A DNA stretch of 64,000 nucleotides from a virus (taxonomy: Duplodnaviria > Caudoviricetes). The notes under the pieces are model-generated. The model ran no database searches and was not told the DNA's origin. It worked only from the letters and a program-made list of their open reading frames with translations. Below, in pieces: positions 12,571 through 27,912 of this stretch (its first letter is position 1; each line of letters begins with the position of its first letter). The translations under genes and the position numbers were made by a program. Location: IMG/VR virus record IMGVR_UViG_3300021387_000106, positions 1 to 64,000 of that record, one strand, 5' to 3'.

Positions 12571-13186
12571 GAGGAAAAGAATAAAGAAGCAGCCCATTAC
12601 TGACTTATTCGGTGGGTGCATCGGTTATGAAGCACCTGAGAAGGAAATCAAGATAATGGTATGCGACAAGTCTCAGGCAGACAGAATCATTGAAAAGCAC
12701 CACTATTCGCACAAAACCACGTCCAATAGCTTTGTATCACTTATCGTACTCTACAAAGGTAAGGTAGAAGGTGCGCTGCAATGCGGCTATGGCATACGTC
12801 CTCAAATCAAGGGCGATTACAAACCCGAAGAAGTACGTGAGTTTGATAGAATGTGGCTATCTGATGAAATGCCTAAATTCTCTGAAACCATTGTGCTGAG
12901 TCTTTTCCACCACTTTATGCGTTTGGCATATCCTAACGTAAAGGTATTAATCAGCTATGCCGATACTACGGCGGGGAATAACGGAACTATCTACAAGGCC
13001 GCCAACTATGAACTTGTTGACAGACTGCAAGCTGATTTTTACCTTTTACCATCAGGCGAACGTGTGCACCCCGTCTCTATGTGGCACAGACACAAGACAA
13101 GAGCGTGGGATTTCCTGCAAAAGCAGTACCCTGGTATTATCCATATCCGTAATGGCGAACAATTGAAATTTGTGTTTCGATTGTAA
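12569..13186 (+). CDS. Mom-family (GNAT-like) DNA adenine modification protein
   Basis: IIEKHHYSH, EFDRMWL, LISYAD...NNGTIYKAAN; the only rightward gene inside the leftward operon. Confidence 0.78.
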   Translation: MRKRIKKQPITDLFGGCIGYEAPEKEIKIMVCDKSQADRIIEKHHYSHKTTSNSFVSLIVLYKGKVEGALQCGYGIRPQIKGDYKPEEVREFDRMWLSDEMPKFSETIVLSLFHHFMRLAYPNVKVLISYADTTAGNNGTIYKAANYELVDRLQADFYLLPSGERVHPVSMWHRHKTRAWDFLQKQYPGIIHIRNGEQLKFVFRL

Positions 13187-13204
13187 CATTATCGGCATAA
13201 TATT
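13180..13204. repeat. Right inverted repeat flanking the mom-like gene
   Basis: Core ACATTATCGGCA (13186-13197). Confidence 0.8.
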
Positions 13205-16722: not shown

Positions 16723-17277
16723 TTAGAATAAACTTAGTTGTTTCGGTTCAATCCTGCCTTCTTTCGTAGAAGGAGTAATAAAGAGATTCTGATAGATGAA
16801 GAAAAGAGGCGCAACTGTTATGCTGTTTCCTGCAAGTCTGTATGCAGCCGACTTACTGATACCGCTATTAAGTATGGTATCAATATCGTTTTCCTCAACG
16901 TCCTGCAAACGGAAGCACTCACGTTCCGTAAGTTTGCGGATGCGCATTATAACAGGAAGTATGTCATTGCAGAAGGGAATAAAGCTATCCTTTGCCATTT
17001 CCTTATGTGCTTGCGCCAAAGTGTACTCGCATAGTAGCTTCAATGGTCCCTCAGGATTCCATTTCTTAAACAGCCTATCCATGCGTTCAAGTGCTTTGTC
17101 GGTGAATTTGCAAACTTTATCGTCTGAATTGTTCGCTTGATACATTGCAGGGAACACAATCTTGAACAATTCCAGGCACTCGTCCTGAGTAGCCTCTTTG
17201 CCGTATGTTCTGCGATAGTAGCGATATACGACCCTCACGAATCTATGAAAGTCGTTATACATCTTATTCTGTCTCAT
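16723..17277 (-). CDS. C5-cytosine methyltransferase C-terminal part (motifs IX-X)
   Basis: RIRKLTERECFRLQ (IX), YRLAGNSITV (X); ends QLSLF. Confidence 0.88.
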   Translation of the reverse strand: MRQNKMYNDFHRFVRVVYRYYRRTYGKEATQDECLELFKIVFPAMYQANNSDDKVCKFTDKALERMDRLFKKWNPEGPLKLLCEYTLAQAHKEMAKDSFIPFCNDILPVIMRIRKLTERECFRLQDVEENDIDTILNSGISKSAAYRLAGNSITVAPLFFIYQNLFITPSTKEGRIEPKQLSLF

Positions 17278-17446
17278 ATACTAAGTAAATGTTTATCTGC
17301 TGTGTAGTAGTAACCGTTGGTGCAGGATTCTTGATATTGGTTATTTGAAGTTCGCTGACACCTCGTTTATCATCGGTATCTGACTGGTAGGCTCTGATAT
17401 TGCCATTTGGCATTTTCTTGAATCTGATGAAGTCTGCTCTACTCAT
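17264..17446 (-). CDS. TRD-like cassette 10 (60 aa)
   Basis: ...NPAPTVTTTQQINIYLVYETE*. Confidence 0.7.
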   Translation of the reverse strand: MSRADFIRFKKMPNGNIRAYQSDTDDKRGVSELQITNIKNPAPTVTTTQQINIYLVYETE

Positions 17447-17637
17447 GTCTCATATACCTCTACTAACAAATTATCCTTCGCCCCGGCAGTAGTCAAAGCA
17501 CCCATCATTCCGTCTTTGGCAACGTACTGAACTTTGCCTTGGCTGTATTTAGCCCCTGCATCACCATGAATATGCCTGCGTTCCCTTTCCTCAAAGGTAC
17601 GCATCTTTCGTAGCTGCTGTGCGTCAATCAGTCTCAT
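17443..17637 (-). CDS. TRD-like cassette 9 (64 aa)
   Basis: MRLIDA...DGMMGALTTAGAKDNLLVEVYET*. Confidence 0.7.
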   Translation of the reverse strand: MRLIDAQQLRKMRTFEERERRHIHGDAGAKYSQGKVQYVAKDGMMGALTTAGAKDNLLVEVYET

Positions 17638-17791
17638 ATACCAAGCAAAGCATTGAATCCTTTGTTATACTCGTTACGGAATTGGCATACATTTCAGAGT
17701 TAAGTTCGAGTTGCTGTATATGCTCTGATACGCTCCAGTCGCCTTTGCTTCTGCCACGATAGGCGCAACCAATAGCCTTAATCAGTCTCAT
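17624..17791 (-). CDS. TRD-like cassette 8 (55 aa, not in ORF track)
   Basis: Hand translation MRLIKAIGCAYRGRSKGDWSVSEHIQQLELNSEMYANSVTSITKDSMLCLVYETD*. Confidence 0.72.
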   Translation of the reverse strand: MRLIKAIGCAYRGRSKGDWSVSEHIQQLELNSEMYANSVTSITKDSMLCLVYETD

Positions 17792-17921
17792 AAGCCAAAA
17801 CTATTAAACTATGGTCTATGTTCTGAGTCAGAGCATTTGAGACTCGCCAACGTCCAAACTCAAAAGTCATTCCGTTATCTCTCATTCTCTTAGCACCATT
17901 CTTTGCGTCAATCAGTCTCAT
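17778..17921 (-). CDS. TRD-like cassette 7 (47 aa, not in ORF track)
   Basis: Hand translation MRLIDAKNGAKRMRDNGMTFEFGRWRVSNALTQNIDHSLIVLAYETD*. Confidence 0.65.
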   Translation of the reverse strand: MRLIDAKNGAKRMRDNGMTFEFGRWRVSNALTQNIDHSLIVLAYETD

Positions 17922-18060
17922 AGACAACTCTAATCTTAGGTTCGACTCCTACATGGCATCCACAAGTCAATGTTGGTGCAATGCCGTTTGGCTCATAGAC
18001 CATACCATTTTGCTTCGATACCCAAACGTTACCTATCACAACAATCTTATTCGTTCTCAT
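17908..18060 (-). CDS. TRD-like cassette 6 (50 aa)
   Basis: MRTNKIVVIGN...MVYEPNGIAPTLTCGCHVGVEPKIRVVYETD*. Confidence 0.75.
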   Translation of the reverse strand: MRTNKIVVIGNVWVSKQNGMVYEPNGIAPTLTCGCHVGVEPKIRVVYETD

Positions 18061-18208
18061 AGACCACTGCTGCAAACTGATCTGTATTGCCTCCTGCTCC
18101 AGTAGAGCCGTGAATGGTGTTCGCAACGTCCTTACGATGATAGTTCAGTATCTCGCCATTGTCACGGCTACGAGTATAACCGAAGATGAAAGAATCAATC
18201 CGTCTCAT
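18047..18208 (-). CDS. TRD-like cassette 5 (53 aa, not in ORF track)
   Basis: Hand translation MRRIDSFIFGYTRSRDNGEILNYHRKDVANTIHGSTGAGGNTDQFAAVVYENE*. Confidence 0.7.
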   Translation of the reverse strand: MRRIDSFIFGYTRSRDNGEILNYHRKDVANTIHGSTGAGGNTDQFAAVVYENE

Positions 18209-18360
18209 AAATCACCATTACACCAGTTGCTCCCCAATCATTCTGATACTGAAAGTTAATGCGTCCTGTCTTAAAGTACTGGCTTTTGAGAGTCCTACAA
18301 GTACCATCATCAAAAGTATTTAACCCTCGCAAATCGGGGGGGTAATTTATTGGTTTTCAA
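18195..18360 (-). pseudogene. TRD-like cassette 4, out of frame at a C7 homopolymer
   Basis: DLRGLNTFDDGTCRTLKSQYFKTGRINFQYQNDWGATGVMVIYETD* is in frame with the junction TTG only if C7 (G7 at 18336-18342 on +) becomes C6 or C9. Confidence 0.6.
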
Positions 18361-18538
18361 TAACTTGCGTGACATAATACATACAATTACCATCTATACG
18401 AGCCTTGATAGTTCCTGCAACGCTATCATTCCAAATGCCATTGTAGGTATCTAACCAAACACCATCTTTCATAGGTGGTGTATTGCTTTCTATTAGGCTT
18501 TCAAGACGAACACCGCCAGTAGGCTTATTCCGTTTCAT
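18347..18538 (-). CDS. TRD-like cassette 3 (63 aa)
   Basis: MKRNK...LDTYN...VAGTIKARIDGNCMYYVTQVIENQ*. Confidence 0.7.
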   Translation of the reverse strand: MKRNKPTGGVRLESLIESNTPPMKDGVWLDTYNGIWNDSVAGTIKARIDGNCMYYVTQVIENQ

Positions 18539-18710
18539 ATATCTCATAAATAACGTTTCCTACGCTGCGATACTCATTTGCAGTAACGGTAGGGCAAATA
18601 TCCTCATGCAACCAGCCTCGCTTGTCTCTCTTGCACTTCCATTCCATTTCTCTATTAAGAGGGTGAATACTGGCAAGACAGCGACTTGGTGGTGTTTTAT
18701 TCAGTTTCAT
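18525..18710 (-). CDS. TRD-like cassette 2 (61 aa)
   Basis: MKLNK...DICPTVTANEYRSVGNVIYEIYETE*. Confidence 0.7.
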   Translation of the reverse strand: MKLNKTPPSRCLASIHPLNREMEWKCKRDKRGWLHEDICPTVTANEYRSVGNVIYEIYETE

Positions 18711-18867
18711 ACACATACATCACACACGTCTTACAATGTTTGTCGTGGGTATAGTCACTGATGGCTGCAAGGTCATATCTTGTATTGATAGTGTACGCTA
18801 CACCACTTACTGCTGTGTTGTACGGAACTATCCTACTGAGCAAAGATGAAGTTCTCCAGTCCTTCAT
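18697..18867 (-). CDS. TRD-like cassette 1 (56 aa)
   Basis: MKDWR...SGVAYTINTRYD...CVMYVYETE*; start overlaps the end of the N-terminal MTase ORF. Confidence 0.65.
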   Translation of the reverse strand: MKDWRTSSLLSRIVPYNTAVSGVAYTINTRYDLAAISDYTHDKHCKTCVMYVYETE

Positions 18868-19606
18868 CACCATCGGGAAGGAATTGCATTGTGCCGCCAT
18901 TTTCCGATTCCTCCAAAGATTTCTCACAGAACCTAACAAGCATTTCATCAGAAAGGAAGTACTTTTCATCTACGTTCTCTTCAAGAACGTCTCTTAGGCA
19001 AAGTTCCAATGGAAACTCCTTTGGGAACTCGTAGTTTGGAATCGGTGTACCTTTCTCACGATAGATAGAGACACAGAATACTCGTTCTCTATGTTGTGGC
19101 ACACCGAAGTTAGATGAATCAAGTACCTTCCAGTAGTTCACATATCCAAGACCTTCAAGAACGTCGAGCCAGTCCGTGAAGTCTGCCATGAACTTTTTCT
19201 GAGTGAGCGATTTCACATTCTCCATAAGGAGATACTTAGGACGTTTCTCCTTGATTGCTCTTTCGCACTCCCAAAGGATAGAGGAACGAGTACCGCTATC
19301 TCGCTTGAATCCCTGCTGCAATCCTGCTGCACTTACATCAGTGCAAGGCCAAGAATAGGTGAAGAAGTCAAAGTCTGGCACTTTCTCCCATATTATTTGA
19401 GAAATATCACCATAATTGATGATGTTCTCGCCCTTGTGTAAGGCCATATAAGCGGTTATTGCTGTTGGTTCAATGTCAGAGTAGCCAACTACTTTGAAAT
19501 CGAACTCAGGGAAATACTCTTTGAGCCTCTTAAAGGCAAGTGACTGGCTACCATAGCCGCCAAAGGCCTCAAAGACTCTCAGAGGTTTGTTTACGTCAAA
19601 TTCCAT
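18833..19606 (-). CDS. C5-cytosine methyltransferase N-terminal catalytic part (motifs I-VIII)
   Basis: FEAFGGYG (I), GDI (III), YSWPCTDVS (IV), MENV (VI), GVPQHRERVF (VIII), LRDVLEENVDEKYFLS; stops before the TRD. Confidence 0.92.
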   Translation of the reverse strand: MEFDVNKPLRVFEAFGGYGSQSLAFKRLKEYFPEFDFKVVGYSDIEPTAITAYMALHKGENIINYGDISQIIWEKVPDFDFFTYSWPCTDVSAAGLQQGFKRDSGTRSSILWECERAIKEKRPKYLLMENVKSLTQKKFMADFTDWLDVLEGLGYVNYWKVLDSSNFGVPQHRERVFCVSIYREKGTPIPNYEFPKEFPLELCLRDVLEENVDEKYFLSDEMLVRFCEKSLEESENGGTMQFLPDGDEGLENFIFAQ

Positions 19607-19629
19607 TCGGTGATATTACTCAAATAATG

Positions 19630-20016
19630 TTACTTACACATATTCAGACACGCTGCCTTGAAATCGTTACCAAACTGATTATCCTTCCAAGGCTCTGCGT
19701 AAATATCAACACCCACTGAATGATTCAGGAGTGATTGAAAGAAAGGAGAATTACATTGATTGCGATAGTACCATTTCTGGCAATCCTCGCTATCAGTGTA
19801 GATGTTCACTGCCATACGCTTATTGTTCTCACAAAGCATCATGGCACATATAACGGCAATCACCTCACAATTGAAGTCATCGGCAATGGTGTTTATACCC
19901 TCAAAGGATATTCCGTTTTCCCATCTATGAGAGCCATAATGAATGATATTGCCGCTTTCTACAATGACAAATGCAGACGTTTGGTTGTGTCCGCAAGCGT
20001 ATATCTCGGTAATCAT
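19630..20016 (-). CDS. RNase H-like fold protein
   Basis: EVIAVICA..., VNIYTDS. Confidence 0.55.
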   Translation of the reverse strand: MITEIYACGHNQTSAFVIVESGNIIHYGSHRWENGISFEGINTIADDFNCEVIAVICAMMLCENNKRMAVNIYTDSEDCQKWYYRNQCNSPFFQSLLNHSVGVDIYAEPWKDNQFGNDFKAACLNMCK

Positions 20017-26881: not shown

Positions 26882-27827
26882 AACTATATATTATTTCTTT
26901 TGTTGACACCAATTCATCGTACAAATCACGTAGCCTGCTTCTATTGCTTCTTTGGCAGTAGCATTAGGATGCTTGTTAAGCCAGTCATTCAGTTGGTCTT
27001 TATATCCCATATATTTAGTATTGTTGTTCTCTGAATAAAAAACCTCGCTACCTATCTCAGGCAACGAGGTACAAACTACTTAAAAACTAATCTACTAAAA
27101 CAAATCAAATTATATCGCATGAATTACAACAAAGTCTCTAACCAAAGCCCCAAGCCGTATTGCCTGGGGCCATCTTAACAGCAATGATTTATTCAGCCTA
27201 CAAAGATTTTCAGAAAGTAGCGGAACACCAAACTAATGATATTCCGCTTTAGGTGTTGGCGGCTCTGTTCCTCATTGTGCCGATACCCAATACCCCTGCG
27301 ACAAAATGGAAGCGACCCGGAGAAAGATGCAGACAAGCTACTCGACCTTGCCGAACACGGGCACTTGGGGAAAACAAGGTCTTATAGAAAGATCAGAAAT
27401 CCGGGAAGGGATTTGCCGTGAGTACCTGATAGCGGACACATACAGGCCACCAACGAGCGAACTGTTATGGAACACAGATTCTATATTTAGTATGATTGAT
27501 TTTTATTAAAACCACCTGACTTTCACAAGCAAGGTGGAATCCGTATAACATTACGTCATAATCTATGAATTACTTACAAAGTTGATTTGACCTTCTCAGG
27601 CTTTAAGGAATATATGATGTTTGATAAAGATTGTGGGCGAACTGGCTGCTATTCCAAAACGCCCTATCTTGAATATGGCATACAAGAAAAGACTTATCAA
27701 AAGCCATCCGACTTTCACAAGCCAAATGGTTGCATTAATTTTTTCAATTATTGTAATTTACCAATTCATCAATCTTGTTCTCACGAACATTTATATTGAC
27801 ACCTAATGAATATAGATTAGACACAAG

Positions 27828-27912
27828 CGGAGAGTGAGAGATTCGAACTCCCGATACGTTGCCGTATGCCTCGTTAGCAGTGAGGTGCTTTCGTCCACTC
27901 AGCCAACTCTCC
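27828..27912 (-). tRNA. tRNA-Ser(GCT)
   Basis: GGAGAG acceptor stem, anticodon loop CTGCTAA, long variable arm, GTTCGAATC T-loop; CCA not encoded. Confidence 0.92.

Follow-up and report, generated by a model that had tools for sequence, protein, structure and literature searches.

Candidate detached and individually switchable target-recognition modules in a split phage cytosine-5 methyltransferase

The DNA analysed here (the window) comprises positions 1 to 64,000 of IMG/VR record IMGVR_UViG_3300021387_000106, a gut-type phage sequence that is 109.8 kb long and has direct terminal repeats. Its minus strand carries a cytosine-5 (C5) DNA methyltransferase in pieces: a catalytic N-half, a closing C-half and, tiling the 1.56 kb between these core halves, ten open reading frames (ORFs) of 47–64 amino acids (aa). 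These cassettes are numbered c1 to c10 in gene order from the N-half to the C-half, and labels such as L010 denote related loci. The cassettes probably encode separately translated, individually phase-variable target-recognition domain (TRD) subunits that serve the two-piece core, a reading to which we assign a probability of roughly 0.6 on comparative sequence evidence. The anatomy of the locus, its conservation, selection on the peptides and on their ATG codons, insertion and deletion of cassettes and polymorphism of tract length are established.

Textbook C5-methyltransferases are single chains and their variable region is the usual home of the TRD. In the window, the N-half matches profile positions 2–216 of the 324 in Pfam family PF00145 (E 1.6e-49) and the C-half matches positions 270–322 (E 3.9e-5, above the curated cut-off), the variable region being absent from both. 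These boundaries agree with an earlier reading of the DNA made without database searches (the sequence-only reading), in which the catalytic half ended before the variable region and motifs IX and X lay in a separate ORF. Motifs I (FGGYG), IV (PC), VI (ENV) and VIII (QHRER) are found in the translation of the N-half and are invariant across an alignment of 28 sequences, the window and 27 relatives. Motifs IX and X sit on the other polypeptide, a split as in two-subunit C5-methyltransferases, and both core halves retain all of the catalytic motifs. Comparison with L025, L015 and L032 shows that the tail of the N-half has the flanking strands of a common first TRD while the TRD core is absent. 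No match to PF00145 other than the two halves was found in the whole 109.8-kb genome.

The cassettes were described as TRD-like from the outset and comparison with other phages bears this out. All ten of the T-L/I/V-type cores listed in the sequence-only reading are present in the translations. Eight of the ten cassettes, translated in precisely their own frame, have homologous proteins in other phages, and no alternative-frame ORF of the array had a homologue in the same comparison. For some cassettes the homologous sequence is an in-frame TRD of a single-chain enzyme (e.g. L015, L036 and L024) or of a partly fused one. Thus c5 is homologous to an in-frame TRD (aa 425–461) of the single-chain 636-aa L015 enzyme, c1 has homologues in L036 (an in-frame TRD) and L039 as well as copies in L085 and L087 that are 72–84% identical, and the six homologues of c8 include in-frame TRDs of L018 and L029. 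There are 11 cross-phage homologues of c3 in its own frame, 15 of the c4 body in the frame of that body, 12 of c6 and eight of c9, and the c8 and c9 types both occur in the 318-aa C-part of L029. The homologues of c10, in L013 (62% identity) and L014 (55%), are separate mini-ORFs in the same last position. A TRD of the c6 type occurs in 158 PF00145 proteins, full-length or partial and mostly of 380–440 aa, at 59–62% identity. The c9 type matched 58 clusters among 1.84 billion representative proteins, 42 of them of 135 aa or less and none above 342 aa; most known examples of this type thus appear to be mini-proteins or parts of a C-piece, although these are gene calls on fragmentary contigs. 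A motif-IX remnant at the start of c9 was considered and rejected, the stretch being part of a common TRD type that is in frame in L029 and L015. Pfam searches recognised none of the single cassettes, no solved structure matched the c6-family profile by sequence, and in an AlphaFold2 model of L015 the predicted local distance difference test score (pLDDT) is below 50 over the entire TRD region.

The cassettes are also conserved as coding sequence. Identity to distant homologues is about 0.6, 0.68 and 0.3 at codon positions 1, 2 and 3. Against L011, the ratio of non-synonymous to synonymous substitution rates (dN/dS) is 0.14 for all cassettes and 0.07 for the core halves and, repeat tracts aside, no internal stops or indels are seen within cassettes. 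The c2 allele of L010 is 72% identical to that of the window, with 40 of 144 nucleotides (nt) differing and a dN/dS of 0.15, and c7 is identical in L010 and L011.

The layout of a multispecific enzyme is present, with ten TRD-like units in tandem between motifs VIII and IX, but the layout of one polypeptide is absent, the twelve ORFs lying in changing frames that are repeated in independent assemblies. L010 and L011 are contigs from other metagenomes, 98–99% identical, in which every junction and every frame is repeated. Given that the layout also recurs in diverged contigs, assembly error, a concern raised for the frame breaks when the locus was first read, is not their source. An alignment search with the N-half gave 72 related viral loci, whose segments were defined by minimal-path tiling. 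Short-span loci are single ORFs, whereas long-span loci are in some cases single chains with several TRDs (L015, L027 and L041) and in many cases segmented: L014 has 17 segments (14 of its 16 shifts are +1), L025 has 8, L032 has 11 and L039 has 17. Five loci (L013, L014, L084, L085 and L087) form a subfamily with the exact design of the window: the N-half lacks the TRD core, every TRD is a detached unit and the C-half has a helical head at its N-terminus. Identity to the window within this subfamily is 53–80% for the N-half and 32–66% for the C-half. L084 comes from a Bacteroidales metagenome-assembled genome, an origin that hints at a Bacteroidales host. Other relatives are in two pieces with no middle cassettes (L021, L040 and L047). 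In cultured-phage records, neither c6 nor c9 found anything at E ≤ 1e-3, the locus had no nucleotide match, and the relatives of the N-half were of single-chain or two-piece form only. One such arrangement, L082 in the cultured prophage Streptococcus phage Javan141 (MK448681.1, 9713–10982), has a C5-methyltransferase annotated as ORFs of 249 and 141 aa about 100 nt apart with no middle cassettes.

Could the locus simply be a multispecific methyltransferase gene decaying through frameshift mutations? Fused ancestors do exist and homopolymer tracts are mutation hot spots. However, the breaks occur only between TRD units, the same design is found in lineages with core halves of just 32–62% identity, the cassettes are free of internal stops and indels outside the repeat tracts with a dN/dS of about 0.14, and all catalytic motifs are kept in both halves. 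The random decay considered in the sequence-only reading is not the pattern observed, in that the layout is conserved and the shifts are overwhelmingly +1 rather than random. Decay is therefore highly improbable.

The junctions between cassettes show how separate translation would be achieved. A typical unit ends in a hydrophobic strand followed by Tyr-Glu (TAT-GAR), and the ATG contained in these codons starts the next unit, 14 nt ahead of the stop. Because the ATG of the next unit is embedded in this way, the step is +1, as it is at nine of the eleven ORF-to-ORF steps in the window. The exceptions are c3 to c4, where there is a C7 tract, and c9 to c10, where the frame analysis shows the 4-nt ATGA overlap that had already been noted as a break in the +1 pattern. 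The start of c1 differs in being an ATG at 18873 from Asp/Glu codons, in the +1 frame and with a 41-nt overlap with the end of the N-half. The motif TATGARAC, which had been described as supplying both the Tyr-Glu-Thr end of one cassette and the ATG of the next, is present at eight junctions, with TATGAGAA at one. It has 17 matches in the window, a number not attained in any shuffle, and eight of them lie on one strand within the 1.45-kb array stretch; the expectation over both strands of the entire window is 6.15. The junctions group into direct-repeat families of 14–25 nt.

The use of Tyr codons at the junctions is strongly biased. In detached arrays the junction Tyr codon is TAT in 49 cases and TAC in 5 (Fisher p = 4e-10). 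The other Tyr codons of the same cassettes give a TAT:TAC ratio of 158:129, and Tyr codons followed by a GA codon in the long ORFs of these genomes give 194:212 (48% TAT); this last control rejects CpG avoidance as the cause of the bias. The preference for TAT over TAC indicates that the third base of the junction Tyr codon is selected to create the ATG. The TRD units of fused relatives lack this Tyr: at their end, a hydrophobic strand precedes x-Glu-Pro, where x is Lys, Ala, Thr or Ser.

The frame changes could in principle be crossed by the ribosome, the cassettes being fused during translation into one multispecific polypeptide by programmed +1 frameshifting or hopping. The predominance of +1 steps (9/11 in the window, 14/16 in L014) and an ancestral form that is a single chain with tandem TRDs (L015, L027) would fit such a fusion, but it would need ten or more serial shifts. 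Neither a conserved slippery site at the junctions nor a conserved slippery codon before the stops was found: the last sense codon is variable across arrays and the distance from ATG to stop takes values of 4, 8, 11, 14, 20 nt and more. Some junctions are +2, including those of a second lineage (L016, L020) with ATGA overlaps, and the TAT bias selects an ATG that frameshifting does not need. The other genes of the phage are read normally. No tRNA reading four-base codons is present in the window, whose sole tRNA is an ordinary tRNA-Ser(GCT) (27827–27912, minus strand), and an Rfam search of the locus gave no intron or other RNA family. Fusion by the ribosome is thus quite unlikely. The preference for separately started units over frameshift fusion, expressed when the locus was first read, gains support from the TAT/ATG bias, from ATGA junctions in two lineages and from tracts lying between the ATG and the TRD core.

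These tracts sit on single cassettes. The C7 tract (18336–18342) in front of the c4 body is the only G/C homopolymer of at least 6 nt in the whole 109.8-kb genome, and the c4 body of the window lacks an ATG in its frame. The corresponding sequence of L011, C9 plus ACC, brings the c4 ATG into frame with the TRD. Judged by frame, c4 is OFF in the window (C7) and ON in L011 (C9). In an extra cassette of L010 and L012, a few codons separate the ATG from a dinucleotide tract, which is (CT)14 and out of frame in L010 but (CT)13 and in frame in L012. The c2 cassettes of L085 and L087 begin with a C8 or C14 tract at their 5' end, and the CT cassette of L087 contains (TC)10; these tracts are the only such runs in their 10.5-kb loci. 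In 22 segmented loci taken together, G/C runs of at least 7 nt number 57 in the arrays (about 52 kb) and 5 in the flanks (about 233 kb). The array and flank counts are 15 and 1 in L039 and 14 and 0 in L058, and no run of this length was found in the single-chain relatives. The arrays of L039 and L058 carry runs of 7–11 nt within about 3.5 kb, many of them inside TRD bodies and encoding Gly runs; as the runs are inside the bodies, several cassettes of these two loci are split across frames in the assembled consensus. The arrangement resembles that of a contingency locus: a tract just after the start sets the frame, and its length differs between close genomes in a way that changes the ON or OFF state. 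A tract located between ATG and TRD has consequences only when that ATG is used for initiation and therefore supports separate starts. A frameshift in one detached module would spare the enzyme, unlike one in a single chain, and we infer that this is a rationale for the detached layout. The coordinates are collected in Table 1. Upstream of the N-half in the minus-strand gene order are a primase-helicase gene and a 128-aa ORF.

Table 1. Coordinates in the window of the core halves, cassettes and associated elements.
Feature	Position	Strand	Description
N-half, 257-aa ORF	18833..19606	-	C5-methyltransferase, motifs I–VIII
c1, 58 aa	18697..18873	-	AYTIN core, C-terminus VYETE
c2, 61 aa	18525..18710	-	CPTVT core; junction ATG within TATGAAAC
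c3, 63 aa	18347..18538	-	AGTIK core, C-terminus IENQ
c4 junction ATG and C7 tract	18310..18375	-	ATG at 18375, stop after 21 codons
Homopolymer, C7 on gene strand	18336..18342	-	Between c4 ATG and c4 body
c4 body	18195..18332	-	CRTLK core, C-terminus IYETD; out of phase with c4 ATG
c5, 53 aa	18047..18208	-	ANTIH core, C-terminus VYENE
c6, 50 aa	17908..18060	-	APTLT core
c7, 47 aa	17778..17921	-	SNALT core
c8, 55 aa	17624..17791	-	ANSVT core
c9, 64 aa	17443..17637	-	GALTT core, C-terminus YET; stop overlaps next ATG (ATGA)
c10, 60 aa	17264..17446	-	APTVT core
C-half, 184-aa ORF	16723..17277	-	Helical head, then motif IX (RKLTERE..RLQ) and motif X (GNSITV)
Inverted repeat, 20 nt, 19/20 complementary	19392-19411 + 19609-19628	- (gene)	Brackets N-half start codon and first 65 codons; membership tentative

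It might be argued that only the core halves form the enzyme, in the manner of M.AquI, with specificity coming from the tail of the N-half and the head of the C-half, and that the mini-ORFs are translated spacers or relics that carry ribosomes from one half to the other. The M.AquI precedent and the two-piece relatives with no middle cassettes would fit this, and assembly of TRDs in trans is itself a hypothesis. Against it, there is no TRD core in either half in the window, the cassette peptides are under purifying selection and conserved as TRDs over deep divergence, and tracts aimed at single cassettes would make no sense for spacers. We consider this explanation rather unlikely. The first 107 or so aa of the C-half are a helical bundle and not a TRD. 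The predicted model has five helices, with pLDDT 70–89 for aa 8–107, and is confident for this helical head only; its structural matches are generic helical bundles, the best having Z 7.8 (Csm2). The helical domain is common to 11 protein clusters and accompanies the fully detached arrays in all five loci of the subfamily. Because of this strict co-occurrence, the head is a candidate assembly or docking platform.

The array gains and loses cassettes. Between c7 and c8, L011 carries an additional cassette that has the same 17-nt junction direct repeat on both sides. L010 has this cassette too and differs from the window further in a CT cassette and the diverged c2 allele. The suggestion that the junction motif could be a site of cassette gain and loss was therefore well founded, as the repeat marks the exact boundaries of indels between near-identical genomes. 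Cassette number and order, which it had been proposed to compare across relatives, prove to be collinear in the subfamily with differences in presence or absence and some duplicates; for example, L087 has no c7 and the c7 match in L085 is doubtful (32%). Cassettes are often closer than cores (in L087, c1 is 84% and c2 82% identical to the window whereas the N-half is 61% identical) and for this reason exchange of cassettes between lineages is suggested. Homing endonuclease genes are also found. A 162-aa NUMOD4/HNH_3 ORF replaces c4, with an ATGA overlap, at L010:6142-6627 (on the same contig as L001), and a 281-aa NUMOD4/HNH/NUMOD1 ORF directly follows the C-half of L013. In L012 (same contig as L003), N-half residues ~1–110, the 5' third of the gene, are replaced by diverged sequence, whereas identity to the window is 96–100% over the 100 nt upstream and over the remainder of the N-half gene. 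On the L012 comparison the N-half core gene is a recombinational mosaic.

Turnover of this kind raises the question of whether the cassettes are a silent library, unused in place and recombined into an expressed position as in antigenic variation. The junction repeats of 17–25 nt, the cassette indels between near-identical genomes and the homing endonuclease gene inside one array are all features that a library might show. However, a half fused to a TRD, which could act as the expression site, is absent from the window and from L013, L014, L084, L085 and L087, the repeats are direct and hence allow deletion or duplication only, and selection for the ATGs together with tracts after them points to expression in place. 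Such a library is an improbable explanation.

The reading of the cassettes as separately translated TRD subunits leads to the following scheme, in which the synthesis of the individual peptides, their assembly in trans and the benefit to the phage are inferred. One multispecific C5-methyltransferase would be built from separate polypeptides: the catalytic N-half, the closing C-half and TRD mini-proteins of ~50–60 aa. Each mini-protein would be translated from its own ATG, overlapping the preceding ORF by 14 nt in most cases and by 4 nt (ATGA) once, and as a result of this overlap translation would be coupled along one transcript. Bound non-covalently to the shared core, each TRD would direct it to one recognition sequence, so that the phage could methylate many sites and escape many host restriction systems. 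Since the modules are separate genes, they could be gained, lost or replaced through recombination at the repeated junction. Slippage of a homopolymer or dinucleotide tract just past the start codon would toggle a single module, leaving the enzyme as a whole unharmed, and a module switched off would help where the host attacks methylated DNA. A fuller version of the scheme has TRDs of ~50 aa as free exchangeable subunits on the two-piece core, possibly held there by the C-half's helical head and by the terminal strand that the TRDs share. Each TRD would have a stochastic switch, and the core perhaps a master inversion switch over its start codon. A clonal phage population would then have combinatorial methylation patterns as a bet-hedge between methylation-sensitive and methylation-dependent defences. 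We put this fuller version forward tentatively and give it somewhat less than an even chance.

Several points weigh against these proposals. We know of no C5-methyltransferase with a TRD as a free polypeptide, and an enzyme of three chains, one of them a 50-aa peptide, would be biochemically demanding to assemble. An out-of-phase tract, as at c4, interrupts coupled translation and the cassettes downstream would need their own initiation. No distant homologues were found for c2 or c7, the limit for c7 being E ≤ 1e-3. Purifying selection between lineages could partly stem from donor genes before transfer.

Several known systems resemble parts of the locus. Multispecific phage C5-methyltransferases have TRD arrays within a single polypeptide and are used against many restriction systems (PMC12707154). 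The temperate Bacillus phage enzymes SPR, phi3T, rho11s and H2 from the Trautner laboratory likewise have one core and several short tandem TRDs between motifs VIII and IX, and the single-chain relatives L015, L027 and L041 have exactly this SPR/phi3T layout. The window departs from it in that the TRDs are separate overlapping ORFs, the core is in two pieces and tracts are found on single TRDs. The two-subunit C5-methyltransferases M.AquI and M.EcoHK31I are known, the small subunit of the latter being encoded in an overlapping frame, and fragments of M.SssI and M.BspRI split in the variable region complement (PMC3404938). M.AquI and M.EcoHK31I show that a C5-methyltransferase can be active when its chain is divided at or close to the variable region, as it is in the window, but they have two chains with the TRD attached to one or both, whereas the window would have up to twelve chains with the TRDs free of both core pieces. 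The Type I HsdS protein also places specificity in a separate exchangeable subunit, and hsdM and hsdS are translationally coupled (PMC3510504). It differs in belonging to the N6-adenine class, in its unrelated fold and stoichiometry and in being a large protein with two TRDs rather than a 50-aa module. In phasevarions (Type III mod, Type I hsdS/hsdM), methyltransferase expression or specificity is switched at random by repeat tracts in the 5' part of the coding sequence (PMC7383803). These are cellular adenine methylases with one tract per whole enzyme, while the window has a phage C5 enzyme with tracts on single specificity modules. No published description of detached TRD mini-genes, or of tract switches on the TRDs of phage C5-methyltransferases, was found in full-text searches of the literature.

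Should TRDs of 50 aa indeed work in trans with a shared core, the class would gain a new kind of subunit organisation, analogous to that of HsdS. To our knowledge, engineering of C5-methyltransferase specificity has always been by TRD swaps inside one protein; the locus would offer a natural, expandable toolkit for programmable cytosine methylation. The arrays would be a ready catalogue of portable TRDs with targets readable from phage methylomes. The scheme would also account for the ability of large gut and rumen phages to contend with many restriction systems in their hosts, and the switches on individual modules would let phages dodge methylation-dependent nucleases.

The start of the N-half gene is bracketed by an inverted repeat (Table 1). 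As RNA, the segment folds with a z of -5.25. L087, whose N-half is 61% identical, has in the same place an 18-nt perfect inverted repeat of different sequence, and the two arms therefore co-vary; its inner arm again encodes a Gly-Asp-Ile motif. In contig L007, the inner segment is joined at that arm to the reversed upstream flank. As the two copies of the flank are only 93.7% identical, simple fold-back of one molecule is unlikely there. Inversion would strip the N-half of its start codon and motif I. The repeat may be a master DNA inversion switch or an mRNA hairpin and is given here as a lead only. In L087, an N6_N4_Mtase (PF01555) gene lies directly upstream of the split C5-methyltransferase (L087:1916-2869), and the window has no such gene. 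The outer arm of the repeat in the window (19621–19631) shares the core AACATTAT with 13185–13195, a copy that belongs to an inverted repeat around a mom-like gene at 12.5–13.2 kb (so named on first reading of the sequence). The pattern AACATTATYKG has only those two matches in the window, where 0.26 would be expected, and two of 100 shuffles reached two matches. One invertase may control two DNA-modification genes.

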